This document shows, one piece after another, positions 5,773 through 35,780 of a stretch of DNA of 64,000 nt. The translations under genes and the position numbers were made by a program. The DNA is from an uncultured Spirochaetota bacterium (GTDB lineage: Bacteria; Spirochaetota; Brevinematia; Brevinematales; JAOACQ01). The notes below the pieces were generated by a model that searched no databases, was not told the DNA's origin, and worked only from the letters and a program-made list of their open reading frames with translations. The stretch's first letter is position 1. Every line of letters begins with the position of its first letter. Location: assembly GCA_963835575.1 (NCBI GenBank), contig CAWIGG010000002.1:1920001-1984000 (forward strand). Direction: 5' to 3'.

Positions 5773-6190
5773 TTAAATTATTTCACCAGAAAATTAAATA
5801 TTATTAATTTGACATACTTTTATTATTCAATAAATAATTTATGCAATTGTTAATAAAATATAAGGGGGGAGTAATGAAAAAAAGATGCATGTTTCGGTTG
5901 TCCATTTTTTCCCTCGGATTGATAATTCTGCCGTAAAATAACCGGCAATTAAAGCCGGAATTATCATAAGAAGCCGAAAATTTGGGATTATTTAATAAAT
6001 ATGCTATATTAATTCGAAATTTTCAGGAATTATTGTGTTTCTTAATAAAGCATTTTGGAAAATTCAGGTATTATTTTTTTTAATGAAAATACCGGGAAAA
6101 TCATCCGGGGCTTAAAAAACAGGAGAATCAAGCCGGGCAATCCGGTATGAGAGGATGGGAAAATCCGTTAAATTGAAACGGGGTTAATCA

Positions 6191-16962: not shown

Positions 16963-17793
16963 ATGTTAGAAAGCAAGTTCGCCGAGATCGGCGGCATGAG
17001 GATTTTTTACATAGAATCAAAACCTGAAAAGCTGAAAGCTGAAACTCAGAATATCCTCTTTATCCATGGCTTTTTCTCGAGGGGTAAAAGTTTTACCAAA
17101 CTGATGGAAGGGCTCTCCGGGGATTATATCATGTACGCGCCCGACCTGCCGGGAAACGGAGCGTCGGATAATTTTCCGGACAGGGAGCTCAGCTTCAAAA
17201 AATACGCCGGATTCCTCATAAGCTTCTGTTCTTATTTCGGAATAAAGAAAACTATTATCGCCGGGGACTCGATGGGCGGCGGCCTTTCAATCGTACTGGC
17301 CGGGTTGTACCCCGATCTCATATCAAAAGTCATACTCATCGATTCCATTACCTATCAGACAAAACAGCCGTTATCGACAAAAATACTTCTTTCTCCCCTG
17401 TTCGGGCCTTTTATCTTTAAAAGGCTTTTTAACTGGGATCAGTTCAAGACCTTTTTCACCCGGGGCGTTTACCAGGACGACTCGAAGATCAATATGGACG
17501 AGTTGAAAGAGAACTATGTCCTTTTCGACACGCCTTCCCGTCGGGAATTTTCATACCGCCTGGCAAAGATGGCGACAGATGTCGGCGAAGTCGAGGCAAT
17601 GATCCCGCTTGTCAATGCCCCTACCCTCATCATCTGGGGCGAGAACGACAGGCTTGTACCGGTGGAGAACGGCAGGAGACTGGAAGAAGAAATGAAAAAC
17701 TCGAGGCTTGAAATCATTCCCGGTACCGGCCATGCCTCTTTTGACGAGAAGCCGGAGACCGCGCTGGTATTGATTAAGGGTTTTTTAAAATAG
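16963..17793 (+). CDS. Alpha/beta-fold hydrolase
   Basis: HGF, DLPGNGAS, GDSMGG nucleophile elbow, WGEND, PGTGH catalytic His. Confidence 0.93.
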   Translation: MLESKFAEIGGMRIFYIESKPEKLKAETQNILFIHGFFSRGKSFTKLMEGLSGDYIMYAPDLPGNGASDNFPDRELSFKKYAGFLISFCSYFGIKKTIIAGDSMGGGLSIVLAGLYPDLISKVILIDSITYQTKQPLSTKILLSPLFGPFIFKRLFNWDQFKTFFTRGVYQDDSKINMDELKENYVLFDTPSRREFSYRLAKMATDVGEVEAMIPLVNAPTLIIWGENDRLVPVENGRRLEEEMKNSRLEIIPGTGHASFDEKPETALVLIKGFLK

Positions 17794-17798
17794 GTTAT

Positions 17799-18015
17799 GG
17801 GCAGTTCTAAAAACTCAAATATTTAGAACTGCCGCTATTATATGAGTTCATGCTACCGTATAGAGTTCGCTGTCTGAAAAGATCATCAACCAGCGAACTC
17901 TATACGGTAGCGTCAATTAAATTTACAAGAGATTCTATAACCGGGGCAGTTCCTCCCTCACCATTTTGGATTGCTTCAAGGCGGGCTTACAAAATGGTGA
18001 GGGATGGAACTGCCC
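17799..18015. mobile_element. Composite ~217-bp MITE (family A ends)
   Basis: GGGCAGTTCT...GGAACTGCCC flanked by TTAT/TTAT; near-identical inverted copy at 33569-33784. Confidence 0.9.
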
Positions 18016-18182
18016 TTATTTTAAAGTTTTATTTATTTAATGATTTTTCTTATATAGGCTTTATTTTTCATTCACTTCAAGATTCTCTCTTTAGTGAAAC
18101 TCTTTATTATCTTTACAAAGCGGCACCTCATATTTTATAATATTAAGGGGGTAGATCAAACTTGGGGATTGGAGCATTCAAA

Positions 18183-18746
18183 ATGGAAAAATTTAATATT
18201 CCCGGGGAAAACAGGGCAGCGCCGAGGACGCCGGTTAATCTTCACATTTCCTGCGAGCAAAACGGGCGTGTCACTCCCTGTGAAATCACTGATTTATCCC
18301 CGCAGGGGATCGGCATAAGAATTAACAGTCTTCTAGTGCCCGGCGACAAGGTAAACATGATTATCGGGGACCATACCCTGCGAGCGGCGGTTGTCCGCTC
18401 AAACGGAAATATGGTCGGATTATGGTTCCGTGATTTGACCAATGACCAATTAAGCTATATTAAGCAGATTTGCAGAAAAAGCGGGAACGGAAATGAGACG
18501 CTGCCCGAAAACGAAATTGTTAATAGCGGGAAAAAGATATATGTATTAAAGGCAGAGACGGAAAAAGACAAGGGATTGCTGGGGCTGTTCCTTGCGTCAT
18601 TAAAAAATAATTTCAAGGGTCTTATTGATGTCGCGCCTCTGGAAAAGGGCGCGTATCAGGTAGAAATTTATGATAATCCCTCATCTGTTACTTCATTCGA
18701 GTCTCTCTTGGTGTTCTGGAAAGCCGGAAATTTAGTATTAAAGTAA
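18183..18746 (+). CDS. PilZ-domain protein with an unknown C-terminal domain
   Basis: RxxxR (RAAPR) and DxSxxG (DLSPQG) c-di-GMP binding motifs; GGAG RBS before ATG 18183. Confidence 0.85.
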   Translation: MEKFNIPGENRAAPRTPVNLHISCEQNGRVTPCEITDLSPQGIGIRINSLLVPGDKVNMIIGDHTLRAAVVRSNGNMVGLWFRDLTNDQLSYIKQICRKSGNGNETLPENEIVNSGKKIYVLKAETEKDKGLLGLFLASLKNNFKGLIDVAPLEKGAYQVEIYDNPSSVTSFESLLVFWKAGNLVLK

Positions 18747-18861
18747 TTAAGACGGCACACTGTGTTAAAAGTCGATTTTTTCCCAAAAGTGAAGTGTTCA
18801 AAATAATTATTTAATTAACCGCGGAGTGCGCTCTTCGGCCCTCGCCGCTTTGTCAGGCCGC

Positions 18862-18982
18862 ATTAAAGAAGGAAATGAAAAACGCGCGGCTTGAAGTCAT
18901 ACCGGATGCCGGCCGCTCCTCTTTTGACGGGAAGCCGGAGATCGCGCTGGTATTGATAAAAAGATCCGTAAGGGCTGAATAG
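18862..18982 (+). repeat. Diverged copy B of the hydrolase gene 3' end
   Basis: Translates LKKEMKNARLEVIPDAGRSSFDGKPEIALVLIK versus the gene's LEEEMKNSRLEIIPGTGHASFDEKPETALVLIK. Confidence 0.9.
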
Positions 18983-19006
18983 TTACGAATTTTTTAGTAA
19001 AATCAA

Positions 19007-19035
19007 TTGACACCCGCGGTCTATCATATTATAAT
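19007..19035 (+). promoter_or_regulatory. Sigma70 promoter of higBA
   Basis: TTGACA-17 nt-TATAAT, ending 6 nt before ATG 19042. Confidence 0.85.
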
Positions 19036-19041
19036 CTAACC

Positions 19042-19320
19042 ATGATAAAATCATTTCGGCATAAAGGCCTGGAAATATTTTTTTACACAGGAAATAAAAA
19101 GGGAATTATTCCGTCCCATGCCGGAAAGCTTGAATTGATACTGGATAAGCTTGAAACAGCTACAGAATTGAAAGACATGAACCGTCCGTATTTCGGCTTT
19201 CATGAACTGAAAGGCGGCCGGAAGGGAACATGGGCAGTTTATGTAAGCGGGAATTGGCGTGTAACTTTTAAGTTTGAAAATGATAATGCTGTATCAGTTG
19301 ATTACGAAGACTATCATTAA
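19042..19320 (+). CDS. higB: HigB/RelE-like toxin (plasmid maintenance killer family)
   Basis: MIKSFRHKGLE...HELKG.RKGTWAV.VSGNWRVTF.F...VDYEDYH. Confidence 0.93.
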   Translation: MIKSFRHKGLEIFFYTGNKKGIIPSHAGKLELILDKLETATELKDMNRPYFGFHELKGGRKGTWAVYVSGNWRVTFKFENDNAVSVDYEDYH

Positions 19321-19332
19321 GGAGATAACGCT

Positions 19333-19632
19333 ATGAATATAACAGAAAGACGGCCGACACACCCGGGTAAAATGCTTCTGGAAACCGAATTGAAACCGTT
19401 AGGTTTAACGGTTACGGAATCAGCCAAACGTCTGGGAATAAGCAGAAAAAACCTTAACGACTTGATTCATGAAGACATATCCCTTAGCCTGAATATGGCG
19501 ATGCGGATAGCAGAGGCAACCGACACAACACCGGAGAGCTGGCTTAATATGCAGCTTCGGTTAGATGTATGGGAAGCAATGCATCGCAAGCGGCCGGAAG
19601 TTAAAAAATTTACCGCCAAGACAGCGGTTTGA
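19333..19632 (+). CDS. higA: HigA antitoxin (HTH-XRE)
   Basis: PTHPGKML...LTVTESAKRLGISR...MAMRI...PESWLNMQ. Confidence 0.93.
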   Translation: MNITERRPTHPGKMLLETELKPLGLTVTESAKRLGISRKNLNDLIHEDISLSLNMAMRIAEATDTTPESWLNMQLRLDVWEAMHRKRPEVKKFTAKTAV

Positions 19633-19742
19633 TAGATAAAATAAAAATCGTTTTTTCCGGATTCAGCGTGCATTCCCCGCCATTTTGATAAGCTGCCCCT
19701 TTATAAGAGCCTCATTTCCCTGAAGAAAGCCGTGATATCGCT

Positions 19743-19856
19743 ATTAAAGAAGGAAATGCAAAATGCCCGGCTTGAAGTCATGAATGGTACCATCCGTGCT
19801 TCTTTTGACAAGAAGCCGGAAATAGCGCTGGAATTGATTAATAATTTTCTAAATAG
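19743..19856 (+). repeat. Diverged copy C of the hydrolase gene 3' end
   Basis: Translates LKKEMQNARLEVMNGTIRASFDKKPEIALELINNFL. Confidence 0.9.
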
Positions 19857-19947
19857 ATATTTTTAAAGTTTGACGGTTCAATAAATGTTAACTAATTCTA
19901 TATCTTTGCGGGTCTTAATATTTCTCAGCGCCGAAGCCGGAATACGC

Positions 19948-19976
19948 TTGACAAATCGCATCGACTGCATTATAGT
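19948..19976 (+). promoter_or_regulatory. Sigma70 promoter of vapBC
   Basis: TTGACA-17 nt-TATAGT. Confidence 0.75.
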
Positions 19977-20006
19977 TTTACCATATATATATCGATGGAG
20001 GCAAAT

Positions 20007-20216
20007 ATGCAATTAACCGTTTCTCCGAAATATCAGATTGCAATTCCGAAGGAAGTGCGGGAATCAATTCATATTAAGGCTGGTCAAAAACTCGATCTTA
20101 TGATAGTTGGAGACACCATTCGGCTTGTTCCCGTCAGGAGCATCAAGGAAATGTTCGGAAAGTTCCCGGAAATAAAGGGAGATATAGAGCGCGAGGAAGA
20201 CAGGGTATTGAAATGA
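20007..20216 (+). CDS. AbrB/MazE/SpoVT-type antitoxin
   Basis: TVSPKYQIAIPKEVRE; GGAGG RBS; ATGA overlap with the PIN gene. Confidence 0.9.
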   Translation: MQLTVSPKYQIAIPKEVRESIHIKAGQKLDLMIVGDTIRLVPVRSIKEMFGKFPEIKGDIEREEDRVLK

Positions 20217-20581
20217 TCGTTCTGGATTCTTCCTGCTGGATTTCAATATTCAAGGGTGAGTCAGGTTCCGAGCGGTATGCGGAAGCTCTGGAAAAAGCCG
20301 ACCGGGTCCTTGTGCCGGGTATCTATATCTATGAAGTCGGGAAGTTATTGATTCGAGAAATCGGCGAAGATCCTGCTCTGGAGGCGATTGCGGCAATGAA
20401 ACAATACCAGATTATTGTGATAGATGCAGATATATCCCTGGAAGCGGCCTTTCTTTCCCTGAAATATGGAATTCCATTTGCCGACAGCATTATACTTGCG
20501 ATTACACAAAAATATCGCGCTGTACTCTGGACAAAGGACGCTCATTTTAAAGGGATTGAAGGCGTTAAATATTGTGAGTAA
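20213..20581 (+). CDS. vapC: PIN-domain toxin (VapC family)
   Basis: VLDSS.W, YEV, FADSII, LWTKDAHF acidic PIN motifs. Confidence 0.88.
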   Translation: MIVLDSSCWISIFKGESGSERYAEALEKADRVLVPGIYIYEVGKLLIREIGEDPALEAIAAMKQYQIIVIDADISLEAAFLSLKYGIPFADSIILAITQKYRAVLWTKDAHFKGIEGVKYCE

Positions 20582-20604
20582 AGAACCGATTTGGAGTCAA
20601 TTAA

Positions 20605-20665
20605 GGGCAGTTCCAAAAACTAAAAAATTTATCAGATATTTCCACAACAGGTTTTGGAACTGCCC
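20605..20665. mobile_element. 61-bp MITE (family A), opposite orientation to the copy at 780
   Basis: Same TIRs and interior; flanked by TTAA/TTAA. Confidence 0.88.
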
Positions 20666-20977
20666 TTAATTCTAATCGTACTATTTTTTCCTAATTCCGC
20701 GTTCTCCCCTTATTAAACAGAGGGTATCCAAGCCATAATTATGGTTTATTATTATTATGAAAATGAGATAGTAAAACCCGGATTATTCATCAAAATCCTG
20801 CGCGTGCGGATTTGATACAAACCGATCAGCCTGCCGCAAATAATTCAATAAATGGGAATATATTTTCAATTTGAATATATATTCCCTCCTATTATATTAT
20901 AATTAGCAGGAGAAAGATTTTAAATTTACCTTATTGAATCTATATTTTCTATTGTCCTGCCGAATAGAATGAATTAT

Positions 20978-21058
20978 AAAGTCATACCCGGTACCGGCCG
21001 CGCTTCTTTTGACGAGAAACCGGGAATTGCGCTGGAATTGATAAGAGAATTTATATAA
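20978..21058 (+). repeat. Diverged copy D of the hydrolase gene 3' end
   Basis: Translates KVIPGTGRASFDEKPGIALELIREFI-stop. Confidence 0.9.
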
Positions 21059-21497
21059 CTTAATAGCTATTGCAATTATTTATCTTGTAAACTAAAATAT
21101 TGAATAATAAGGCTGTTATTTTTTCAATAATTTGTTGAAAATAACAGCTTTATTGTATCGTAAAGGGTTGTTAACAGTGACAATGTATCCGGCCGTTGAA
21201 TAATGGATACGTTCGCGATTCATCATGTCTTCTCTTGGTTTTCCCTCTCCGGTCTTCCGGGAAGCCCGGGATTATTCCATTTTATTTCAATTTCACCGGT
21301 TTATTTGATAAGTTCTTTAAAACATATTCCGCCCGGATGTGTTTTTTACTTATTTATTATTCGGGCCGGCATTACTGAAGCTGTAAAACACTATTAAAGC
21401 ATAAATCCGTTCGCAAGGAGGATTTTTTACTGATTAATAAAATATCAATCATCACGCTTTAATAATAATTTGCTGCTTTCAATAAAGGGGGCTTTAT

Positions 21498-24413
21498 ATG
21501 AAAAACGCGGCTGGAAAAAGCATCGGTAAAAAAGGGAGGGCTGTTCATAAATCTGTCAGAGCCGGGAAAAATACCAATCTGAAAAAAGAGATCAATACGC
21601 CGTATTCTTTTCCCGAATTCAATCCGAACCCTGTTATTGAAATGGACCTTAAATTCAATATCCATTATATCAATCCGGCCGCCAAAGCCTGTCTTAAAGG
21701 TATACAAAAACAGGGTATCAACCATCCGTTCCTGAAAAATATCAAACAAATATTCCTCGATCTTAAAAACAATAAGAAAGAAGCAATTAAGAGGGAAATC
21801 CGCGTTGATGATACATGGTTCTATCAATCCTTTTTATTTGTAGAAAGTACAAACCGGGTCAATATCTATGCTTATGACATAACCGGGCCCAAGCTGTCGG
21901 AGGAAAGAATCACGCATTTAAACGCGGTACTTCGCGCCATCCGGGATGTTAACCAGCTCATCGTGAAAGAGAAAGACCGCGGCCGGCTGATTCAGAAAGC
22001 CTGCGTGAAACTGATTGAGACAAGGGGTTACGGAAGCGCCTGGATAGCTTTGCTGGATGAAACCGGAAACTTTATCACATCCGCCGAAGCAGGCATCGGA
22101 GAGAAAATCGCCTTTTTGATAGAACAGCTGAAACGCGGCATCATGCCCGAATGCGGACGGAGAGCGCTTGCCCAATCTGAAGCATGGTTTACGAATCGCA
22201 TTGAGGACTATTGTACAACTTGCCCTCTGGCAAAGCTCTATCCCGGCAATGGGGGGATGTCCATACGGTTGGAATATGAAGGAAAAGTATACGGTTTTAT
22301 GACCGTTTCCGTACCTTCCGCGCAGGCAGTGGATGAGGAGGAAAAAGGGCTTTTCAGGGAGGTCTCCGCCGATATAGCCTTTGCCCTGCATGGTCTGGAA
22401 GCGGAAGCGGAGCGTAAGAAGGCGGAGGCAAATTTGCTGGAAACCGAGCAGTTACTGCAGATGATAATTGATAATATTCCCGCGTTAGTTTCATATATTA
22501 AGCAGGACCGGTGCTACCAGTTTGTAAATAAACGTTATGCCGAAAATTTCGGCAAAACGACAGAAGCAATAATCGGCAAACCTTACAGGGAAATTGTCGG
22601 CGAAGCGTATTATCTGTCAACCGTAAAAAACAACGACGCCGCATTTTCCGGTCAGCATATCTCCTATGAAACATCCATAGATTATCCGGCGACCGGCAGG
22701 CATTGGCTGACAGTCAATTATACACCGGATATTGACGATCATAAAAAAGTTAAAGGAATATTTGTTTCCGCATACGACATTACCGATCGTAAGAAAAAAG
22801 AGGCAGAGCTGGCCGCGGCGCAGCAGGTTTACCGGGAGCTGTTCGAAAACGTCAATGTCGGTATTCTGCGTACGACGCCGGGGCCGAAAGGAACTTTTAT
22901 CGATGTGAATCCGGCGATGACCAGGATGTTCGAAGCGGACAGCCGCGAACAGTTAATGGCCCTTCATCCGAGCGAAATCTATTGGGACGCGGGCCAGCGC
23001 AGGATCATCAGCGATGCCATTGTGGCCGGGGGCTTTGCTAAAGAGGAAATCAGGTTCAAGACCCTTAAGGGAAGGCCGATCTGGTGCCGCATTACAGCGG
23101 TTAAGAAAATCGACGCAAACGGCCAGGTCTATTTTGACAACACTATTGAGGACATCACCGAGCGTAAACTGGCGGAGGAAAAAATCCGCAAACTCAACGA
23201 AGAATTAGAGCAAAAGGTTATCGAGCGTACCGCCAGTCTCGAATCCGCGAACAAGGAGCTTATAAAAGAAATCACCGAGCGTCAGCGGATTGCTGAAACA
23301 TTGCAAATGCATGAGGCAATTATCGAGAACTCAGACGACGCGATCTATGGAAAGGACCTTCAAGGAATAATCACCAGCTGGAACAAGGGAGCGGAAAGAA
23401 TATATGGTTATTCCAGTCATGAGACAATCGGGCAGCCGGTTTCTATGCTGGTGCCGCCTGATATGCCTGATGATTTTCACACAATTCTCTCAAAAATAGC
23501 AAACGGCGAACATATCGTTCACTATGAAACCAAACGGCGGAAAAAAGACAGTCAAATAATAGAAGTCTCCGTGTCCATATCCCCGATAAGAAACCAATCC
23601 GGTAAAATTATAGGGGCTTCAACCATAGCGCGCGACATTACCGAGCGAAAGCGGACCGAGGAATCAATTAACAAGCTTAACGCGCAATTGGAAAATAATG
23701 TACAGCAGTTGGAAGCCGCCAATAAAGAGCTGGAAGCTTTCAGCTATTCCGTCTCCCACGACCTCAGGGCGCCGCTGCGGGCCATTGACGGCTTTTCCAA
23801 AGTGCTGATGGAAAGTAATACCAATAACATTGACGGCGAAGCTAAAAGATATTTAAACATCATCAGGGGCAATACGCAGAACATGGGAAAACTGATAGAC
23901 GACCTGCTGTCATTTTCCCGGATCGGCAAACAGGAAATGCATTTTTCACAGATCAGCATGGAAAGCATGGCGAGGAATACTTTCGAAGAGTTAAAACAGC
24001 AGAATCCCGGCAGGAAAATTGAATTTACTTTAAAAAAGACGCCGGACGCATCAGTCGACGCGGCCATGATGAAGATCGTATTATCCAATCTTCTGGGCAA
24101 CGCGGTGAAGTATACCGGGAAAAGGACTGATGCCGTCATACTGTTCGGCGGTTCCATAAAAAACAATGAGGCTGTTTACAGCGTTAAGGACAACGGTGTC
24201 GGCTTTGATATGCGGTACGTCGGGAAGCTTTTCGGCGTTTTCCAGAGGCTCCACAGCAGGGACGAGTTCGAGGGAACGGGGGTCGGCCTTGCCCTGGTCC
24301 AGCGGATCATTCTCCGCCATGGAGGGCGCGTATGGGCCGAGGGAAAGGTTGATGAAGGAGCGGAATTTTATTTCACATTACCAATAAAAAAGGAGGAAAT
24401 AAATGACTATTGA
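21498..24413 (+). CDS. Cytoplasmic PAS/GAF sensor histidine kinase
   Basis: [12 protein letters not shown], a GAF segment, several DITERK PAC ends, [14 protein letters not shown]-box, GTGVGL. Confidence 0.93.
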
Positions 24414-24849
24414 TAGTATGGTGGAGATTTTGCTTGTAGAGGACAATCCGAACAATGTCGAATTGACTTTAATAGCCCTGAAAGAGAATAAACTGGCCAA
24501 TAACGTGCAGATCGCGCACGACGGCGAAGAGGCCCTGGAATTCATCTTCAGCACCGGGAAATACAGCGGCCGGGACATCAATTTAAAACCGAAAGTGATA
24601 CTCCTCGACCTGAAGCTCCCGAAGGTGGACGGCATTGAAGTCCTCCGGAAGATCAGGTCCGATGAAAGGACGAAAACGATTCCCGTTGTAGTATTAACCT
24701 CTTCCAAAGAGGAACGGGACATCGTCGAAACATATAAACTCGGTGTGAACAGCTATATTGTCAAACCGGTGCAGTTTGAAAACTTTGTAAAAGTTGTCAA
24801 AGAACTGGGGCTATACTGGCTTGTGGTCAACCAGCCGCCGGTGAGATGA
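24403..24849 (+). CDS. Single-domain response regulator
   Basis: [29 protein letters not shown]. Confidence 0.95.
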
Positions 24850-25074
24850 AGAGGAGTTAAGGGGTTTACATATAAGACCACCCCCAACCCCTCCTAAGAT
24901 AGGAGGGGAGTTTAATAATAACTAATAAATTTATTGTGTTATATAAAATTAAAAACTTTTGAGCATTAAATCATTTGGATTTAGGTATTGTTTAGGATTT
25001 AGAGTTTAGAATTTATGATTTATTATAGAGTTGAATAAAATTGGACAGGAAAAATAAAATAAAGAGGGCGTATT

Positions 25075-28000
25075 ATGGGCAAGGAAATAAAGATACTCTT
25101 TCTTGAAGACTCCCCGGCCGATGTCGAGCTGAACCTGAATGAATTAAAAAAAGCCGGTTTTAATGTCATACCGAAAACCGTGGAGACAAAAGCGGATTAT
25201 ATTTCCGCCCTTCAGGGATTCAAACCGGACATCATCCTGGCCGACTATAACCTTCCCTCTTTTAACGGCATGGAAGCGCTGGACTATATAAAAAATAACG
25301 CGATACAAACCCCATTTATTCTTGTTTCAGGGTCCCTGGGGGAAGAACTGGCGGTGGACGTCGTTAAAAGAGGAGCGACAGACTACATTCTCAAGCAGAA
25401 CCTCTCCAGGCTGGCGGCATCGGTAAAACGCTCGCTCAATGATATCGAGGAGATAAAAAATAGAGAAAACGCCGAGAATTTGCTGCGCGAGAGCGAGCTC
25501 AGGTTCCGGACGCTGTACCTCAAGGCGCCCATCGGCATAGCGCTGATCTGCCCCGACAATCATTTTTTAGATGTCAATGAGGCTTTCTGCCGGATAATGG
25601 GATACACAGGAAAAGAATTAGAAAACAAATCAATACTTGAAATTACACATCCGGATGACAGGGAACACTTCAAAGCCCTTTTTGAAAACATCGTCAGCGG
25701 AAACATAGACAGCTACAGCATAGAAAAGAGATGTATAAAGAAAGATGGAAAAATCATCTGGGTTAACGGGACCATGGCAGGGATAAGAAATACTGACGGA
25801 GGGTTCCTTTACGGGATCGTGATGATAGAAGATAACACCGAGCGCAAGCTCTCGGAAGAAAAATTAATTGAAAGCGAAGAAAGGTATAAAAGAATTACCG
25901 CCGGTTTAACCGACTATCTATATACCGTTAAAGTAAAAGACGGCAAAGCTATTGAAACAATTCATAACGAAGCCTGTCTGGCTGTAACCGGATATACTTC
26001 GAAGGAATTTGGGGCGGACCCTTATCTCTGGATTAACATGGTTGTTCCTGAAGAAAAAGAGTTTGTCGCCGGTAGATATTTAAAAATTCTTGAGGGAAAA
26101 GAATTGGCCCCAATTGAACACCGGATAATTTGTAAAAACGGAAAAATCCGCTGGATCAGCGATACCGCGATTCCTAAATTCAATTCTAATGGCGAGCTCA
26201 TTTCTTATGATGGAATAATTAAGGACATCACCGAGCGCAAGTGGGCGGAAGAGGCGCTGCGGGAGAGCGATGAAAAATTCAGGCGCATATTTGAAAATGT
26301 ACAGGAAGTGTACTTTGAAGTATCTTTCGACGGCACTGTCATCGAGGTCAGTCCGTCCATCGAAATCATAACAAAAGGGCAGTATCGCAGGGATAAATTG
26401 ATCGGAAACTCGATATTCCAAATGTGGGCTGATGACGGCGGCCGGCAGAGTTTCCGATCGGCATTACAGGAGCATGGAAGTGTTGCGGATTATGAAGTCA
26501 CACTGAAGAACCGGGACGGATCACTGGTTTTATGCTCCATGTCGGCAAAGATACATTCTAAATCTTCCGGCCAATCGGTATCTATAATAGGAAGCATACG
26601 CGACATCACCGAGCGCAAACGGACGGAAGAGGCGCTAAAGGAATCGGAAGAAAAATTCAGGACTATTTTTGATAACGTAAGCGACGGAATGTTCCTGATC
26701 AATCTTGTTAACAATAAATTTATCCTCTGCAACAGCGCGTGCACCGGAATGCTGGGCTATACGAAGGATGAGTTTCTTAATTTAAAAATCGCCGATATTC
26801 ATCCGCCGGAGGACCTCTCTTTTATCAATGGACAAATCCGGAAATTCCTTCAGGGTGAAGCGGGAATACGCAGCGATATCCGTTTCAAGATGAAAGACGG
26901 CAGCATCATCTATGCCGACCTCAGCCCCGCAGAGACTACAATCTCCGGGGAAAGGTTTTTAATCATTATATTCAGGAACATCACCGAGCGCAAGCGGTCG
27001 GAGGAGGCGCTAAAAGCTTCCGAGGTCCGTTACCGCCGGCTTTTCGAATCGGCAAAGGACGGCATACTCATCCTCGACGCGGAGACAGGAATAATCAACG
27101 ATGTAAACCCGTTCTTAATCGGGATTTTGGGTTTCAGTTATGAAGATTTTTACGGCAAAAAGCTCTGGGAATTGGGGTTTTTCAAGGACATCATTTCAAA
27201 CAAGGTCAACTTCCTGGAATTGCTGCAGAAAGAATTCATCCGGTATGAAAACCTGCCGATGGAAACAGCCGACGGCCGGAAGATAGAAGTTGAGTTTGTC
27301 AGTAATGTGTACCTGGTTGATAAAAGAAAAGTAATCCAGTGCAACATCAGGGACATCACCGAACGAAGGCGTACTGAGGAAGAACTGCTCCGTTACCGGG
27401 ACCATTTTGAAGAGATGGTCAGGGACAGGACGGACGAACTCGTCAGGTCGGAACAAAACCTGAAGCTGGCCAAGAACCAGGCCGAGGCGGCGAACAGGGC
27501 CAAGACCGTTTTCCTTTCCAGCATGTCGCACGAGATCCGCACGCCGCTGAACGCGGTCCTGGGCTTCTCCCAGCTGATGCTCCGCGACGCGTCATTGACG
27601 GTCCAGCAAATCGAATGGCTGAACACCATCAACCGTTCAGGCGAGCACCTCCTGGCGCTGATAAACGACATCCTGGAAATATCCCGGATAGAGTCCGGCA
27701 GGGTCTCATTAAGCCCCGATCTTTTCGATTTGAAGACATTCCTCGGCGACATGGAAAAAATGTTCCGTGTACGGGTTGAGGAGAAAAACCTTAAACTGCG
27801 TATGGAAATTGATGAAGGAATTCCCAGGTTCATCGAGCTGGACGGCAATAAACTGCGGCAGATATTCATCAACCTGATCGGCAACGCCGTCAAATTCACC
27901 GACGAAGGGATGATTACCGTGCGGGTGAGCGCCGAAAGGAAAGAAAAAGATAACTACCGGCTGATAGCGGAAGTGGAGGACACGGGACCGGGCATCACGA

Positions 28001-28869
28001 CGGAGGATTTGAATAAGATATTCAATAAATTCGAGCAGACGACCATCAGCCTCAGAAAAGGCGGGACGGGGCTCGGGCTTTCCATCAGCCGGCAGTTCGC
28101 CCTGATGATGGGCGGCGATATCGCGGTTATAAGCGAAGCGGGAAAAGGGAGCTGTTTCCGTCTCGAGCTGGATTTTAAGGAAAGGAACGCTCCTGAACTG
28201 GAAATTGGATCCGAACGGAGGATTATTACCGGGCTGAAGAAAGGCCAGGAACCCTTCCGTATATTGATCGCCGACGACGAGCCCGCGAACCGGATGCTGT
28301 TGAGGGACCTGCTGAGCAAAGCCGGGTTCGAGGTCGCGGAAGCTTCCGACGGCAGGGAAGCTGTAAAATTATTTAAAGAAAGGACGCCGCACCTTGTATT
28401 CCTCGACATGAGAATGCCGGTGATGGACGGCTATGCGGCGATAAAAAAAATGAAATCCCTTCAAAAGGATATCCCTGTCATCGCCGTTACGGCATCCGCT
28501 TTTGACGAGAACAGAAAAAAAATGAATGACGCGGGCATAGACGGCTATATACGCAAACCATATAAAATCCAGGAAATCTATGATGTTCTGAAATCAAAAC
28601 TGGGAGTGCAGTACGCTTACGCGAAAGCCCCCGCGGGCAGGTCGGATAAAGCCGGGAAGATCACAGAGGAAGCGCTAAGAGGCCTGCCGGAAAACCTGGC
28701 CGGCCGGATGCTGGAAGCGGCGGTGAGGGTGGACCTGGACCGCCTGCTCGAATTGATAGATGAAGCGGCGGAAACGGCCCCGGCGCTCTCCGCGAAGCTC
28801 CGGGTAATGGCGAAAAGCTTCCGGTATGATGAAATAATAAATCTCCTTAAAAAGAGAGGAAAAATATGA
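25075..28869 (+). CDS. Hybrid sensor kinase: REC, multiple PAS, HisKA/HATPase, REC
   Basis: N-terminal REC, about five PAS/PAC units, MSHEIRTPLN, GTGLGL, C-terminal REC (DMRMPVMDG). Confidence 0.95.
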   Translation: MGKEIKILFLEDSPADVELNLNELKKAGFNVIPKTVETKADYISALQGFKPDIILADYNLPSFNGMEALDYIKNNAIQTPFILVSGSLGEELAVDVVKRGATDYILKQNLSRLAASVKRSLNDIEEIKNRENAENLLRESELRFRTLYLKAPIGIALICPDNHFLDVNEAFCRIMGYTGKELENKSILEITHPDDREHFKALFENIVSGNIDSYSIEKRCIKKDGKIIWVNGTMAGIRNTDGGFLYGIVMIEDNTERKLSEEKLIESEERYKRITAGLTDYLYTVKVKDGKAIETIHNEACLAVTGYTSKEFGADPYLWINMVVPEEKEFVAGRYLKILEGKELAPIEHRIICKNGKIRWISDTAIPKFNSNGELISYDGIIKDITERKWAEEALRESDEKFRRIFENVQEVYFEVSFDGTVIEVSPSIEIITKGQYRRDKLIGNSIFQMWADDGGRQSFRSALQEHGSVADYEVTLKNRDGSLVLCSMSAKIHSKSSGQSVSIIGSIRDITERKRTEEALKESEEKFRTIFDNVSDGMFLINLVNNKFILCNSACTGMLGYTKDEFLNLKIADIHPPEDLSFINGQIRKFLQGEAGIRSDIRFKMKDGSIIYADLSPAETTISGERFLIIIFRNITERKRSEEALKASEVRYRRLFESAKDGILILDAETGIINDVNPFLIGILGFSYEDFYGKKLWELGFFKDIISNKVNFLELLQKEFIRYENLPMETADGRKIEVEFVSNVYLVDKRKVIQCNIRDITERRRTEEELLRYRDHFEEMVRDRTDELVRSEQNLKLAKNQAEAANRAKTVFLSSMSHEIRTPLNAVLGFSQLMLRDASLTVQQIEWLNTINRSGEHLLALINDILEISRIESGRVSLSPDLFDLKTFLGDMEKMFRVRVEEKNLKLRMEIDEGIPRFIELDGNKLRQIFINLIGNAVKFTDEGMITVRVSAERKEKDNYRLIAEVEDTGPGITTEDLNKIFNKFEQTTISLRKGGTGLGLSISRQFALMMGGDIAVISEAGKGSCFRLELDFKERNAPELEIGSERRIITGLKKGQEPFRILIADDEPANRMLLRDLLSKAGFEVAEASDGREAVKLFKERTPHLVFLDMRMPVMDGYAAIKKMKSLQKDIPVIAVTASAFDENRKKMNDAGIDGYIRKPYKIQEIYDVLKSKLGVQYAYAKAPAGRSDKAGKITEEALRGLPENLAGRMLEAAVRVDLDRLLELIDEAAETAPALSAKLRVMAKSFRYDEIINLLKKRGKI

Positions 28870-29960
28870 GCGCAGTTATTTTAAAGAATGAAACGTTTGA
28901 TATTATGATAGTGGACGACGAGCCGGCCAACCTTCAGGTCCTGGCTGAAATATTGAAACAGAAGGGGTATAAAGTCCGGCCGGCCGCCAGCGGAAAACAG
29001 GCCCTCCAGGGCGCTAAAATAGAACAGCCCGACCTCATCCTGCTGGATATCAATATGCCGGATTTGAACGGCTACGAAGTGTGCGCCATGCTTAAACAGG
29101 ACGAGAAATTAAGAGAGATCCCGGTGATATTCATCAGCGCGATGAGCGAAACCATTGATAAAGTGAAGGCCTTCGCGGCCGGCGGCGTAGATTATGTGCC
29201 GAAGCCGTTTCATTATGAGGAGGTACAGGCCAGGGTGGAAACGCACCTGAAGCTCCACCGCCTGCAGATGGAACTGGAAAAACACAATAAAAAGCTCGAG
29301 GAGCTCGTGCTGGCGCAGGTAAAGGAGATCTCCGAATCGCAGATGGCGACCATTTTCGCCCTCGCGAAACTGGCCGAGTCGCGCGACGACGACACAGGCA
29401 AACACCAGGAACGCGTGCAGGCCCTCTGCAGGGTCCTCTGCGGCCGGATGGCCGAAAAAAAAGAATTCAAAATATGGATTGACGGTCCCTTCATTAAAGA
29501 TATGGTCCATGCCAGCCCTCTCCATGATATCGGCAAGGTGGCCATTCCCGACAGGATCCTGCTCAAACCCGGCAAACATACTCCAGAGGAATTTAAAATC
29601 ATGAAAACCCATACGACGCTGGGAGCGGAAACGCTCAGGCAGGTCCGGATGAACTACCCGCATAACTCATTCATTAACATGGGTATTGAAATAGCGCATT
29701 TTCACCATGAAAGGTGGGATGGAAAGGGCTACCCGGAAGGGCTTTCAGGAGAGAAAATCCCGCTCTGCGCGCGCGTCATGGCCGTTGTGGACGTTTACGA
29801 CGCCCTCCGGTCAAAGCGCTGTTATAAAAATCCAATATCCCATGAAGAAAGCCGCGATATCATTATTAAAGAAGGAGGAACGCAGTTCGACCCCGGGATT
29901 GTGGAAGCGTTCGCGGAAATACAGGACAGTTTCAGAAAAACCGCCGACGAACTGATATAA
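28866..29960 (+). CDS. Response regulator REC + HD-GYP phosphodiesterase
   Basis: LLDINMP, HDIGK, HHERWDGKGYP. Confidence 0.95.
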   Translation: MSAVILKNETFDIMIVDDEPANLQVLAEILKQKGYKVRPAASGKQALQGAKIEQPDLILLDINMPDLNGYEVCAMLKQDEKLREIPVIFISAMSETIDKVKAFAAGGVDYVPKPFHYEEVQARVETHLKLHRLQMELEKHNKKLEELVLAQVKEISESQMATIFALAKLAESRDDDTGKHQERVQALCRVLCGRMAEKKEFKIWIDGPFIKDMVHASPLHDIGKVAIPDRILLKPGKHTPEEFKIMKTHTTLGAETLRQVRMNYPHNSFINMGIEIAHFHHERWDGKGYPEGLSGEKIPLCARVMAVVDVYDALRSKRCYKNPISHEESRDIIIKEGGTQFDPGIVEAFAEIQDSFRKTADELI

Positions 29961-29970
29961 GGGATGGAAT

Positions 29971-31119
29971 ATGAAAGATATCGACAACAAAAATAAACCG
30001 CCTTCCGTGATGATCGTCGACGATACTCCCGACAACCTGAACCTGCTGTCAGCCATTCTTAAGGAATGCGGGTACCATGTCCGCCCGGCGCCCGGCGGGA
30101 AGCAGGCCCTGGAGGCCGTAAAATCGGACCCGCCGGATCTGGTCCTTCTGGACATCATGATGCCGGATATGGACGGATACGAGGTCTGCCGCGTCCTGAA
30201 AAGCGGCAGGAAGACAAAAGACATCCCCGTCATATTCCTGACGGCGCTGGACAGCCGGCAGGACGAGGAAAAGGGATTTAAGCTGGGCGCTGTGGACTAT
30301 ATCACAAAACCGTTCATTAACGAGGTCGTCAAGGCCCGCGTCAATACGCACCTCCAGCTTAAGCGCCATCAGGACAGGCTTGAACAGATTGTCAGCGAGC
30401 GTACGGCGGAACTGATCCAGGCCAATAAAGACCTCCTTTTGGAAATCGACGAAAGGAAACGGGCGGAAGAAACCGTCAGGAACTCACTAACGGAAAAAGA
30501 GGCGCTGATAAAAGAGCTCTATCACCGGACTTACAACAATATGCAGGTCATCAGCTCGATGCTGAACGCTCAGGCTTCTTATGTGGAAGAGGAAAAGGTC
30601 AGGATTATTTTCCGGGAAATGTCCGGCAGGATCAACTCAATGGCCAAGGTGCATCAGAAGCTTTATCAATCGAAGGACCTGTCCAGCGTCAGCCTTAAGG
30701 AATATATCATTGAAATATCCGAACTTCTGATGCAGGGCTACATCGGACCGGCAAACAACATTGACATCAGTATGGACCTGGAAGATGAGAAAGTTCTCAT
30801 CGACACAGCCGTCCCCTGCGGCCTTATCATCAATGAACTGATAACAAACGCCCTGAAATACGCTTTTCCGGGCGGCAGGAGGGGCCTCTTAAAAATCTCG
30901 CTCCATAGGATCGATAACAGTAATCTGGAACTGCGGGTTTCAGACAACGGCATCGGCGTTCCGAAAGGTTTTGATTTTAAAATTAACCGCGGAATGGGCC
31001 TGCAGATTATTTATGATATAGCGGAAAAACAACTGGCCGGAAAAGCGGACTTTGAATCAAACAATGGATTGTCCGCCGTGATCCGGTTTAACGACAAATT
31101 ATATCATAAAAGGGTATGA
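29971..31119 (+). CDS. REC + HisKA_2-type histidine kinase
   Basis: REC domain, ELYHRTYNNMQVISS, NELITNALKYAF, DNGIG, GMGL. Confidence 0.9.
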   Translation: MKDIDNKNKPPSVMIVDDTPDNLNLLSAILKECGYHVRPAPGGKQALEAVKSDPPDLVLLDIMMPDMDGYEVCRVLKSGRKTKDIPVIFLTALDSRQDEEKGFKLGAVDYITKPFINEVVKARVNTHLQLKRHQDRLEQIVSERTAELIQANKDLLLEIDERKRAEETVRNSLTEKEALIKELYHRTYNNMQVISSMLNAQASYVEEEKVRIIFREMSGRINSMAKVHQKLYQSKDLSSVSLKEYIIEISELLMQGYIGPANNIDISMDLEDEKVLIDTAVPCGLIINELITNALKYAFPGGRRGLLKISLHRIDNSNLELRVSDNGIGVPKGFDFKINRGMGLQIIYDIAEKQLAGKADFESNNGLSAVIRFNDKLYHKRV

Positions 31120-31147
31120 ATAAGGATTATTGTGTTGTATTTTAATA

Positions 31148-31400
31148 TAATCAGGGCTTGTTAATTTCCGTGTTAAATACCGGAAGCCGTCATTGCGAGC
31201 ATCCGGCGCTGTATTCCGGTATTGATTATAGCGCGAAGCAATCTGTCTGCATATTAAGACAGCTTAATGAGTCGACAGACGCCGTGGTGAGCTTGTCGAA
31301 CCATTGCTTCGCACAAGAATATCCGTCGAAGGATAAAACCAGCCGCTCGCAATGACGCCTTTAGCGCTGAAATTCTTGGTTTTTCAGCAAGCCCTGATTA
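31148..31400. repeat. Nested palindromic element
   Basis: Outer IR TAATCAGGGCTTG/CAAGCCCTGATTA; inner IRs CGTCATTGCGAGC/GCTCGCAATGACG and GCGAAGCAAT/ATTGCTTCGC; right half repeated at ~33966-34032. Confidence 0.8.
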
Positions 31401-31449
31401 GTAATAATAATTAGTAAAATCTATAAAAATATTTTTATGGAGATTTTAT

Positions 31450-32814
31450 ATGAACAATTTCTTCGACATCCTGGGCCATCCGGATTTTCAGTTTGTGTTT
31501 ATCTTTCTTATTTTTATAACAGGGGCCTCGTTTGTTTTCTATCTCATACTGAAGCAGGTCAATAAAAATCTGTCGCTGTCTGTAATCGAAACGGCGGTCA
31601 AGGAAAAAAACTATAAGCAGGCGCTCGAATCGGCTTTCAGGTATTTAAAGACAAAGCCGGCCAATTATCTTATCTATTATTATATGGGGGCGGCATACGA
31701 GGGCCTTTTTCAATACCATATGGCGATTGAATCCTATGAGAAGTCGCTGGTCCAGGTCAGTGAAACATTCAGGCAGAGTACGGGCGTGGAAATACAGTTG
31801 AAGCTGGCCAATCTCTGCCGTAATATCAAAAAATTCGAGTCGGCTTTCGGTTATTATAAAATGGTGCTGGCAAAACAGCCGAATAATAAGGACGCCCTCT
31901 GGAACATAGCCGGGCTTTATTTTGAGCAGAAGAAATATATTCCCTCGAAGCAGTGCCTGGAAAAGATCGCGGCCCTTCAGCCCAAATTCGGTAAGGCCAG
32001 GCTGATGCTGGCAAAAGTTTATTACCAGCTGGGCGAATACCAGAAATCCCTTAAGGAGCTGAAGAAATTCTTTGAAGTAAACGAGGAAGTGTCCCTGACG
32101 CTCGGCAGCGAAACTTCCCTGCTTTTGGCGGATAACTATATCGCCGTAAAACGGTACAGCGACGCCGTCATGTCATTAAAACCGCAATTGAGGGACAATA
32201 ATGTTTCGGGCATCGTATTGCTGAAGATAGTGACATGCCTGATCAAAGACAATAAATCCGAAGAAGCGATAGCGCTGACGGACGACTACCTCCTCCGTAT
32301 GCCGGCCCAGGAAAGATGCGGCATCCTCTACGCGATCGGACTGGCATACAGGGACACCGGGGAAATTTATAAAGCGCTATTGGTCTGGAAGGCCGCGTAT
32401 GAAATTAATCCGAAATACCTGGATATCAACGATATATTTACCCATTACAGCAAGTTGATAAATAATCCATGGCTTGAGAATTATTATACGACAAATGACG
32501 TTATTTTTGAGAAATACACAAGGAAGAAGCTGAATATTCTTATGCAGGAAAATCTGATAGAAAAGCAGAAAGAGTTCTGGATTTTTAAAAACGGGAACGG
32601 CTGTTCCATCCTTTACAGGCCGCCGGAGATCATGAGCCTGCACACGCTGGAAAGGATCGAGGATTATTTCAACAGGACCGGTTATTCCAATATCTCCATC
32701 GACCTTTATACGCTTTTCGGGGTGGACCTGGACGGAAGGACAAAGAGCCTTTTTTATAAAAAAATAAAGGAATTCTCGGAAAATGATTTTCTGCAGGTAT
32801 TTAGTAAAGATTAG
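31450..32814 (+). CDS. Membrane-anchored tetratricopeptide-repeat protein
   Basis: One N-terminal TM helix followed by multiple TPR-like helical pairs. Confidence 0.85.
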   Translation: MNNFFDILGHPDFQFVFIFLIFITGASFVFYLILKQVNKNLSLSVIETAVKEKNYKQALESAFRYLKTKPANYLIYYYMGAAYEGLFQYHMAIESYEKSLVQVSETFRQSTGVEIQLKLANLCRNIKKFESAFGYYKMVLAKQPNNKDALWNIAGLYFEQKKYIPSKQCLEKIAALQPKFGKARLMLAKVYYQLGEYQKSLKELKKFFEVNEEVSLTLGSETSLLLADNYIAVKRYSDAVMSLKPQLRDNNVSGIVLLKIVTCLIKDNKSEEAIALTDDYLLRMPAQERCGILYAIGLAYRDTGEIYKALLVWKAAYEINPKYLDINDIFTHYSKLINNPWLENYYTTNDVIFEKYTRKKLNILMQENLIEKQKEFWIFKNGNGCSILYRPPEIMSLHTLERIEDYFNRTGYSNISIDLYTLFGVDLDGRTKSLFYKKIKEFSENDFLQVFSKD

Positions 32815-32854
32815 ACCGGCTGAAAAAAAAAGAAAAAGCGGGAGGAAATAGCTT

Positions 32855-33553
32855 ATGCTGAAAAGAAGAATACTCATTGTGGAAGACGAGATCATGATAG
32901 CGAGGGAAATAGAAAAACTGCTCGGGAACCTCGGTTATGAGACGGCTGAAATCGCCGGATCGGGTGTGGAGGCCCTTGAGGAAGTAAAAAAAGGAAATAT
33001 CGACCTGATCCTGATGGATATAGTCATCAAAGGAGAACAGGACGGGATACAGACGGCGCAGATTATACGGAAGGATTTTGATATTCCGGTCATTTTCCTG
33101 ACCGCGTATTTCGATGATAATACACGGGAACGGGCCAAACTGGCGGAACCATTCGGGTATATCATAAAGCCGGTCCAGAAGAGGGAACTGCAGATAGCGA
33201 TTGAAATGGCGTTTTATAAGCATCAGGCGGACACTCTGGTAATAAAAGAAAGGGAATGGCTCTACACCGTCATAGACAGCATCAAGGACGGCCTGATAGC
33301 CGTGGATACCGGCGATAAGATCAAGTTCATCAATACGCAGGCCGCGTCGCTCTGCGGGTACAGCCCGGAAGAAGCGGCCGGGAAAGAAGTGGGAGATATC
33401 CTGAAGATGAAGATAAGCGATTCAAGCGATTCGATAGGAAAAGCGTCGCTGATCCAGAAAAACGGTGAAAAAAAGAGCATATCCTATTTCCTGAAAGACA
33501 CTTTTGATAAAAAAGGAGAACGCATAGGCTCGGTGATATTTTTTAATATTTAA
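32855..33553 (+). CDS. Response regulator with C-terminal PAS domain
   Basis: ILIVEDE, LMDIVIKG..DG, EPFGYIIKP, then SIKDGLIAVD PAS. Confidence 0.9.
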   Translation: MLKRRILIVEDEIMIAREIEKLLGNLGYETAEIAGSGVEALEEVKKGNIDLILMDIVIKGEQDGIQTAQIIRKDFDIPVIFLTAYFDDNTRERAKLAEPFGYIIKPVQKRELQIAIEMAFYKHQADTLVIKEREWLYTVIDSIKDGLIAVDTGDKIKFINTQAASLCGYSPEEAAGKEVGDILKMKISDSSDSIGKASLIQKNGEKKSISYFLKDTFDKKGERIGSVIFFNI

Positions 33554-33568
33554 AACTTTATGAAATAA

Positions 33569-33784
33569 GGGCAGTTCCATCCCTCACCATTTTGTAAGCC
33601 CGCCTTGAAGCAATCCAAAATGGTGAGGGAGGAACTGCCCCGGTTATAGAATCTCTTGTAAATTTAATTGGCGCTACCGTATAGAGTTCGCTGGTTGATG
33701 ATCTTTTCAGACAGCGAACTCGGGCGGTAGCATGAACTCATATAATAGCGGCAGTTCTAAATATTTGAGTTTTTAGAACTGCCC
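33569..33784. mobile_element. Composite ~216-bp MITE (inverted copy)
   Basis: Reverse complement of the 17799 element apart from a few substitutions; flanks ATAA/ATAG. Confidence 0.9.
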
Positions 33785-34059
33785 ATAGTAAATAATTAAT
33801 AATGATGCTTTATAAAAATTTAAAAAGCCTCCTATAAAGAAATATGTGAAAAGGAAAAAGCTCCCTGAGCGTTGTCTGCCGGCTAAAATGCATTTCAAAA
33901 GATGACAGGCTCATTGCATCGCTCATAGAGCGCTCTTTTCACACAGCCTGCGGGCTCACCAATCAAGCCTGTCGAACCATTGCTTCGCACTATAGTAATC
34001 GTCGAAGGATAAAACCAGCCGCTCGCAATGACAGCGGGGCCAGGGTATAAAAGTTATCG

Positions 34060-34096
34060 TTGACTTTACGTATAATCTATGTTATTATTATACGTA
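34060..34096 (+). promoter_or_regulatory. Promoter with palindromic operator for the third TA module
   Basis: TTGACT-17-TATTAT overlapped by the perfect IR TACGTATAAT-10 nt-ATTATACGTA. Confidence 0.75.
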
Positions 34097-34108
34097 CAGG
34101 AGTGAAAT

Positions 34109-34360
34109 ATGGAAACCAAACTCACTTTAAAACTCAACCAGGATGTAATAGAGAATGCCCGGAAATACTCAAAAGCCCACCACAGAAGTTTGTCCGGTTT
34201 AGTCGAAGCATATTTTCGCCGTTTGGGTAATTTGAATAAGGACCTGCCGCCGGTTGAATTGTCGCCGGTAGTGAAGGTTTTGTCCGGAGTACTCAAAGAA
34301 TCAGATATCGAAAACTGGAAAGATGGATACACGGATTGGTTGAAAAAAAAATATGAATAA
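34109..34360 (+). CDS. RHH-type antitoxin (DUF6364-like)
   Basis: METKLTLKLNQDVIENARKY...SLSGLVE; overlaps the PIN gene. Confidence 0.8.
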   Translation: METKLTLKLNQDVIENARKYSKAHHRSLSGLVEAYFRRLGNLNKDLPPVELSPVVKVLSGVLKESDIENWKDGYTDWLKKKYE

Positions 34361-35036: not shown

Positions 35037-35780
35037 ATGAAAATCCAGAAAGGCTGGGAACCGTTTTCATTTGTGAAAAGGTCCAGGGTCGGAATACTCC
35101 TATCGCAGGGTTTTACGGGGAGCACTTCCAGCGTCATCTATCTCGGGAAAAAGCTCGCCGGAGCGGGCTATAATGTCGAAGGGCCTCGGCTTGCAGGCCA
35201 TGGAACAAGATGGCAGGACCTGATCGGCGTCGGCTACGAAGAATGGATCGATGATGTTGAAAAGGCGTATCAGAAGCTGAAAAAGCGGTGTAAAATCATC
35301 TTTACCGCCGGGCTTTCCATGGGCGGCACGCTCGCCCTGCGCCTGGCTGAACTCCATCCGGAGATCAAGGGCGTGATCACTGTAAATCATGCGCTGATCC
35401 TCGATACCCCCCTGTCCCCGATCCTGCCTGTTTTAAAACACATCGTCAAAGATTATCCGGCCATCTCTTCAGATATTAAAGACCCTAAAGAAAAGGAAAT
35501 ATCTTATGACCGGACGCCTCTCTACGGAGTTCATGAGCTCAAGAAGCTGATGAAGGAAACAAGGGAAAATCTTGATTTGATCAGCCAGCCCGTCCTCTTA
35601 TTCAAATCGAAAGAGGACCATGTCCTCTCTATAAAAAACACCGTTTATGCCTATGAAAACATTCCTTCAAAGGAAAAAAAGCTGGTCTGGCTGAATAATT
35701 CCTACCATGTCGCGACAATGGACTTTGACAAGGACATCATCGTCAGGGAAACCCTGAAGTTTATAAAAAAACATGTTTAA
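35037..35780 (+). CDS. Carboxylesterase / monoacylglycerol lipase-like hydrolase
   Basis: GFTGS, PRLAGHGT, GLSMGG, EDHV, NSYHVAT. Confidence 0.88.
   Translation: MKIQKGWEPFSFVKRSRVGILLSQGFTGSTSSVIYLGKKLAGAGYNVEGPRLAGHGTRWQDLIGVGYEEWIDDVEKAYQKLKKRCKIIFTAGLSMGGTLALRLAELHPEIKGVITVNHALILDTPLSPILPVLKHIVKDYPAISSDIKDPKEKEISYDRTPLYGVHELKKLMKETRENLDLISQPVLLFKSKEDHVLSIKNTVYAYENIPSKEKKLVWLNNSYHVATMDFDKDIIVRETLKFIKKHV

Follow-up and report, generated by a model that had tools for sequence, protein, structure and literature searches.

An alpha/beta-hydrolase gene of an uncultured Spirochaetota bacterium (Brevinematia; Brevinematales; JAOACQ01) is followed, in the same orientation, by three further copies of its own 3' end, and the intervals between the four copies hold a PilZ-domain gene and two toxin-antitoxin (TA) pairs, higBA and vapBC. 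The array lies in a window of 64,000 nucleotides (GenBank assembly GCA_963835575.1, contig CAWIGG010000002.1, positions 1,920,001 to 1,984,000 of the forward strand; positions given below are those of the window unless another contig is named). Copy A is the end of the functional gene itself, while B, C and D are dead copies of it. On balance it is probable that these three go back to a single illegitimate head-to-tail join and multiplied through RecA-type crossovers, which stacked the cargo of live alleles behind the gene. The features concerned are listed in Table 1.

A first-pass annotation of the window had described the hydrolase 3' end as recurring three times in the same orientation, in repeats of about 37 codons spaced at about 0.9-1.2 kb. 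The copies were located as described, with A beginning at 17679, and their start-to-start distances are 1183 (A-B), 881 (B-C) and 1204 bp (C-D); the figure of 37 codons does not hold for D, which retains just the last ~27. Pairwise BLASTN gave 85% identity over 95 bp for A and B, 78% over 107 bp for A and C, 83% over 64 bp for A and D, and 80% over 99 bp for B and C. In the BLASTN search of the genome that the annotation had proposed (4.39 Mb in all), matches between the copies had expect values (E) of 1e-12 to 1e-23, and a four-copy profile recovered just A-D (E <= 2e-22; runner-up E = 0.15); the four copies form one family with no member elsewhere in the genome. Beyond the four stop codons the right flanks are mutually unalignable. 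The insert does not end with the array at D, as 14 kb more precede the ancestral neighbour, an esterase gene; no fifth tail copy was found in that interval with filters off (best E 0.018).

Sixty related genomes were searched for a hydrolase ortholog, and four of the same genus (G001-G004) have one, 51-54% identical. The gene order in all four is thioesterase, hydrolase, esterase, glycerol kinase, with a single tail copy, no cargo and a hydrolase-esterase gap of about 70-240 bp. The array genome keeps this order, with 5,883 bp inserted ahead of the hydrolase gene and 17,243 bp after it. Since the site is empty in all four relatives, the array is derived; the comparison is one at genus distance, and the units of 0.9-1.2 kb are within the insert limit of <20 kb used by Furuta 2010. 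These observations bear out the earlier proposal of an insertion hotspot bounded by coding sequence, the boundaries being dead gene tails; the comparison of the locus behind orthologous hydrolases, which the annotation had suggested, showed an empty site and not the identical cargo that it had named as speaking against the proposal. No hydrolase homolog above 54% is present in the protein collection (4 matches at E <= 1e-60), in which one homolog at 51% carries the source label Brevinematales; in metagenome and genome contigs, the 160 loci that were kept do not exceed 34%. The operon as a whole (10585-41259), compact in the four relatives, is inflated here by inserts and by dispersed repeats between the later genes.

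The motif GHA[S/A]FD, whose His is presumably the catalytic residue of the fold, is present in A and in all four orthologs, and in B, C and D (3/3) the His is replaced by Arg in the same codon register. Of the private changes of the three tails, 3 are synonymous and 13 replacement, which matches neutrality (p 0.77), and they strike residues that are invariant among the orthologs; those private to A comprise 5 synonymous and 5 conservative changes plus the His site. When the copies were simulated to decay independently, by 8-16% each, 0.8-6.5% of runs produced a substitution common to the three at any site, and no more than 0.12% produced one at the His site. Given this rarity, it is more likely that the left arms of B, C and D stem from one dead ancestor than that three separate displacements took place. 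A mutation hotspot at CATG was considered as the source of the shared His-to-Arg change and rejected, CATG being undepleted in the genome (ratio 0.99).

The first-pass account of the array recognised the four copies but missed that C is fused to a decayed piece of a response regulator (RR)-HD-GYP gene. This 55-bp piece matches the HD-GYP gene 10 kb downstream at E 1.2e-7 genome-wide, and that gene is its sole source among about 18 HD-type matches. The join at C is head to tail, with downstream HD-GYP sequence placed, in the same orientation, before the tail of the upstream hydrolase; such a join arises by tandem duplication or when a locus comes to carry two of its alleles stacked. The final 12 bp of the HD-GYP match (29865-29876) recur as the opening 12 bp of both B and C, so that B and C, but not D, have a left end in common. 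A left hairpin half, broken off in the loop, lies ahead of each of B and C, and most other listed members of the hairpin family keep both arms (60 of 66 regular-expression hits listed, both strands). This GC-rich family, which includes 17954-18004, has fixed 14-bp arms and variable loops (66 hits on both strands) and is often joined to an element resembling a miniature inverted-repeat transposable element (MITE). Within the region common to the four copies, three sites group A with B, and all of them lie 3' of the His codon. This suggests that B is a recombinant whose left arm comes from a dead tail and whose right arm resembles A, a pattern that is without statistical support.

The history we favour would begin with a join over a 12-bp overlap that linked the end of the HD-GYP gene to the hydrolase gene 37 codons before its stop. 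The junction is there to be read at C; the event behind it may have been a tandem duplication or homology-facilitated illegitimate recombination (HFIR), with a later deletion from the hairpin loop leaving 55 bp of HD-GYP. The tail would then have lost its coding constraint, a loss visible in the three copies and including the change from His to Arg, and the slot behind the gene would have varied between lineages (PilZ, higBA, vapBC). The tail of ~110 bp may then have acted as a second homologous landing pad for crossovers with live alleles: an exchange immediately 3' of the His codon would produce a dead left arm, a once-functional right arm and the donor's cargo, and would leave the real gene intact. 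No dedicated recombinase would be needed. An open reading frame (ORF) with a putative RecA signature is present, as are matches to ComEC and DprA, a gene set that is permissive for this history and no more. Self-promoted TA pairs would be retained in such an array, as they function at any landing site and are hard to delete. Homologous recombination was among the options offered by the first-pass annotation, and of these it fits the data best.

Table 1 Features of the array, its surroundings and other genes with tail copies
Feature	Position (strand)	Description
Alpha/beta-hydrolase gene	16963..17793 (+)	Anchor gene of the array, intact; PF00561, 276 aa, His motif GHASFD
Copy A	17679..17793 (+)	Functional 3' end of the hydrolase gene (last 37 codons)
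MITE-like dispersed element	17795..18040	With complete CCCTCACCATTTTG hairpin; outside the repeat; many genomic copies at 94-97%
Cargo 1	18112..18746 (+)	Promoter-like site and PilZ-domain gene (ORF 18162-18746); Pfam
Hairpin left half	18839..18862 (+)	Dispersed hairpin cut in the loop, abutting B
Copy B	18862..18982 (+)	Dead tail, His to Arg; left end common with C; right arm with three states as in A
Cargo 2	19007..19632 (+)	Promoter-like site, higB 19042-19320 and higA 19333-19632; HigB-like, HTH_3, TIGR02607 HigA
Hairpin left half	19674..19700 (+)	Same family, cut about as before B; aligned to family members, regular expression not matched
HD-GYP piece	19701..19754 (+)	55 bp of RR-HD-GYP sequence, decayed; 82% identical to the downstream gene with one 1-bp gap; joined to C, with 12 bp of overlap
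Copy C	19743..19856 (+)	Dead tail, His to Arg
Cargo 3	19948..20581 (+)	Promoter-like site, vapB-like AbrB/MazE gene 19995-20216 and PIN gene 20213-20581; Pfam
MITE-like dispersed inverted repeat	20599..20671	Many copies genome-wide
Copy D	about 20978..21061 (+)	Shorter dead tail, His to Arg
Kinase block	21498..29960 (+)	Histidine kinase, response regulator, hybrid kinase and RR-HD-GYP genes behind D; not at the site in relatives
Source of the HD-GYP piece	29822..29876 (+)	84 bp ahead of the HD-GYP stop
Esterase gene	35037..35780 (+)	Direct downstream neighbour of the hydrolase gene in 4/4 relatives
ABC ATPase gene	contig C5	Three echoes of 185, 149 and 67 bp with differing left ends
ArsP permease gene	contig C5, 280978-282828	92-bp tail repeat behind a TauE gene; 13 synonymous, 0 replacement; cleanest allele-stacking scar
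Other echo genes		Cys/Met PLP enzyme, OmpA-domain protein, NAD-binding protein

Gene-tail echoes also occur elsewhere in this genome. The last 150 bp of 2,993 mechanically called ORFs of at least 150 aa were searched for same-strand, downstream, intergenic copies within 20 kb (bits >= 40, excluding any query that matched the genome over 8 times). Downstream 3' echoes were found for 20 ORFs, compared with 2 for mid-gene pieces, 1 for 5' pieces downstream, 5 for 3' pieces upstream and 8 for 5' pieces upstream. An excess of downstream 3' pieces is also expected from any duplication that breaks inside a gene, and the count alone leaves the mechanism undecided. Twelve of the 20 were set aside (a MITE match, internal or ankyrin repeats, an integrase array, multi-copy families, a 72-bp local duplication), which left the hydrolase gene and seven other genes with 9 echoes; two of the seven genes are putatively folE-like and MFS-like. 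The 9 echoes differ from their genes by 73 synonymous and 50 replacement changes, with a ratio of replacement to synonymous differences per site (pN/pS) of 0.19, and depart from duplication followed by decay (p 3e-9). These echoes thus spent most of their divergence as live alleles, and their silent bias indicates that live alleles of differing descent are being joined in this genome. Synteny at three other echo genes offered just distant homologs (37-64%) in other contexts.

With equal 20-kb tiling, the unfiltered echo rate was 19/2,925 genes here and 2/898 in 1.2 Mb of G002 and G004 (p 0.19); loci of other taxa gave 2/975, and against all others pooled the p value was 0.03. The echo pattern is not peculiar to this genome, and is at most modestly enriched in it. 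One stretch of G002 holds, at its own positions 5948-6014, a 68-bp tail echo 1.3 kb behind its gene. On contig C5 (56020-66530) the tail copies of the ABC ATPase gene, of 67, 185 and 149 bp, form a second three-echo array around DnaB-like, insertion-sequence-like, oxidoreductase and other genes (pN/pS 0.08-0.20). Contig C3 (262337-277215) holds four tyrosine-recombinase 3' ends, 92-94% alike and head to tail, with ankyrin genes and other cargo between them, including putative groES/groEL-like genes. On contig C4 (959738-963425) a GGDEF/kinase gene and the 59-bp echo of its tail enclose 3.6 kb, in which an ABC-three-component-like gene (DUF2326/CTD10) lies.

A related organism supplied further evidence. 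The stretch is contained, at 6% of words, in two thin DNA sequencing runs (X1 and X2); no RNA run is listed. X2 yielded error-free pieces across the end of A and across 19536-19700, and X1, from a separate study, carries vapBC at 96-99%. A 338-bp contig of X1 (depth 4.9) runs from 20643-20691 into 123 other letters and then into D with its right flank; its D region has 16 differences in 102 bp, and the seven listed within the tail are silent, conservative or A-restoring. A D-like tail thus exists in a related organism behind a different left flank. No joint inside any repeat copy is listed among the reads, whose cover from two thin runs is too low for this to carry weight.

Several observations weigh against a single join followed by crossovers. 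B has no HD-GYP sequence beyond the 12 bp, and these 12 bp also fit the ancestral hydrolase codon string LKKE (LKKD in G001), so B might have gained its junction separately; D has no such junction at all. Apart from the 55 bp, nothing left over from a duplicated kinase block was found between A and D. Two sites group A with C instead of with B, and the A/B mosaic rests on three sites, for which we claim no significance. Between the hydrolase gene and its echoes there are 22 synonymous and 32 replacement differences (pN/pS 0.43), which is indistinct from duplication followed by decay (p 0.25-0.48). The D-like tail of X1 comes from a single contig at depth 4.9 in which the His codon cannot be read. 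Among the genomes compared, which include none of the same species, no strain had units missing or in another order. The matches to ComEC and DprA are of a common kind (10-11/14 control genomes) and are no proof of competence.

Serial, independent displacement of the HFIR type would account for the array by having a foreign allele replace the gene end three times, each time together with cargo, and leave the old end at a new illegitimate join, with D the oldest tail and B the youngest. This is unlikely, though to be reckoned with: the other echo loci fit it, with their silent-biased differences and, at the ABC gene on C5, left ends at 185, 149 and 67 bp, as do the ortholog-like residues in which C and D finish (LINNFL and LIREFI) and the closeness of B to A at 85%, and the same model has been proposed for Vibrio type VI secretion system (T6SS) arrays (PMC5361080). 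What tells against it is that the His-to-Arg change would be needed three times, where even a shared change at any site arose in few simulated runs, the same left end twice and the cut hairpin twice. These shared features, along with the neutral decay, would follow from a purely intragenomic history, in which a duplication collapsed to a unit of ~250 bp, expanded by tandem unequal crossing-over and later received unrelated cargo insertions; the pN/pS of the hydrolase tails fits duplication then decay, and the operon holds other, echo-free insertions such as the DUF6364-PIN pair (34109-34781). Such a history is nevertheless distinctly unlikely, since the sequences to the right of the four stops are unalignable, exactly one unit in each interval would be a matter of luck, and the silent-biased echoes elsewhere would go unexplained. 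Barely credible is the view that the tails are decayed full-length tandem paralogs or small proteins: B, C and D each have an ATG in frame and an open stretch of 29-36 codons, but their private changes are neutral and fall at conserved residues. Full-length tandem paralogs, which the first-pass annotation had named as the finding that would speak against a hotspot, were rejected because BLASTN and TBLASTN found no 5' part and no middle remnant of the hydrolase in 17794-35040, and relatives have a single copy.

Very unlikely, too, is a site-specific tyrosine recombinase acting in trans on a dyad in the tail as an att-like site, which would build an integron-like array without attC. The genome does have 23 tyrosine-recombinase matches (PF00589) and an integron-like array, and the 6-bp imperfect dyad, around a 7-bp TTTGACN spacer in the S-F-D-E-K codons, is perfect in C and adjoins the apparent A/B switch point. 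The dyad is, however, set by those codons, similar in G002, which has no array, and broken in B; the core pattern had no exact match in viral contigs. The longest run invariant across the copies, 9 nt, is expected by chance (p 0.31), no motif was found over 13 echo boundaries at 9 genes (information <= 0.58 bit per position), and the four copies gave no fold signal as DNA or RNA on either strand (z -1.6 to +0.5 vs shuffles). A profile built from the intergenic site of the integron-like array had 50 matches at E <= 1, none of them in the window. The first-pass observation that no integrase or transposase is adjacent was borne out, as none of the tyrosine recombinases lies in the window and serine resolvase (PF00239) had no match in the genome, which is 94% complete. 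Neither its suggestion of an unknown recombinase in trans nor an integron-like system found backing in the window, where array site, fold signal and shared motif were all lacking. A cluster of attC sites lacking integron-integrases (CALIN) would not need an adjacent integrase. Elsewhere, matches to the array-site profile also cluster at C2 ~1-47745, C2 ~2.0 Mb, C6 ~400 kb and the start of C3; the integron-like array may be split or accompanied by orphan clusters. A 30-bp repeat with a 61-bp period on contig C2 (809690-810451) has a layout like that of clustered regularly interspaced short palindromic repeats, as judged from BLAST matches alone.

Each interval was previously said to hold one self-contained unit. 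Pfam confirms PilZ, HigBA and VapBC, and sigma-70-like sites precede the units at 18112-18141 (11/12), 19007-19035 (12/12) and 19948-19976 (11/12), as consensus matches alone; the description falls short in that the intervals also contain MITE and hairpin elements (17795-18040, 20599-20671). Homologs of the PilZ gene (48-63%) and of higBA in relatives are at other loci, and none of the 12 stretches examined in relatives has a gene-tail echo beside its PilZ or higBA homolog; the cargo thus carries no repeat of its own. HigB relatives occur in viral contigs at 18 loci (<=56%). An Rfam scan gave no match at the gathering score, and matches to miRNA families, far below it, fell on the MITE hairpins. 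A third TA-like pair, DUF6364 and PIN_3 (34109-34781), lies just ahead of the esterase gene with no hydrolase tail alongside. Behind both PIN genes is a 31-bp match (87%; 20679-20709 and 34856-34886) without extension, part of which recurs at the integrase array on C3.

Self-promoted TA pairs are known as cargo of integrons. The array resembles integrons in this cargo and differs in having no attC-like fold and no array site. Insertion with long target duplication has been described for restriction-modification (R-M) units lying between long, variable, genome-unique repeats, mostly in competent species (PMC2853133). As in the Furuta 2010 definition, the direct repeat here exceeds 30 bp, is unique in the genome and is free of mobile-element genes. 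The two are further alike in their small gene units and in the empty site in relatives, and some of the published repeats overlap a gene 3' end, with units amplifying through the repeats. The cases described in that paper are R-M genes in single inserts between mostly near-identical repeats, whereas the present locus has TA pairs and PilZ as cargo and three stacked tails that are 78-85% alike, with a common dead left arm. The locus works like insertion with long target duplication; that class is defined by R-M cargo, so it is not a strict member.

Successive HFIR-like displacement explains effector-immunity arrays of the Vibrio T6SS (PMC5361080). These T6SS arrays and the orphan arrays of Rhs and contact-dependent inhibition systems (PMC5361080) share with the hydrolase locus a homologous upstream anchor, a new module in first place, an old 3' end shifted downstream and no integrase. 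In the T6SS arrays described, however, the anchor is a polymorphic toxin and the retained immunity gene is useful. At the hydrolase locus a metabolic enzyme serves as anchor, what is retained is dead, and the tails seem to have one common junction, whose overlap of 12 bp slightly exceeds the 3-10 bp quoted for HFIR (PMC6382021). Hotspots of accessory genes between two conserved genes without mobile elements have been linked to recombination of the flanking genes (PMC5635113), but they involve replacement between flanking core genes, with no mention of duplicated ends in the abstract. Tandem arrays of integrative and conjugative elements (ICEs) and islands also have direct repeats between stacked units and give rise to RecA hybrids (PMC5812530); the att repeats of ICEs are typically 10-60 bp and come with an integrase, and the present element has none within it or next to it. 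TA pairs are able to make up genomic islets on their own (PMC2654758), and 10-18% of variable segments are repeat-flanked, the repeats being mostly <30 bp (PMC2884548).

This kind of event is already in print for R-M genes and for T6SS arrays, and the gain here is a well-resolved case together with a genome-wide count. A narrow literature search, outside of which lay subscription papers and supplements, found no paper on stacked dead gene tails with TA cargo. If the history of one join and later crossovers is true, the locus would be a readable fossil of integron-like array growth without a recombinase, in which a dead tail of ~110 bp serves as a heritable landing pad. It would also offer a concrete route by which small modules, such as chromosomal TA pairs, may enter a genome without a mobile element.

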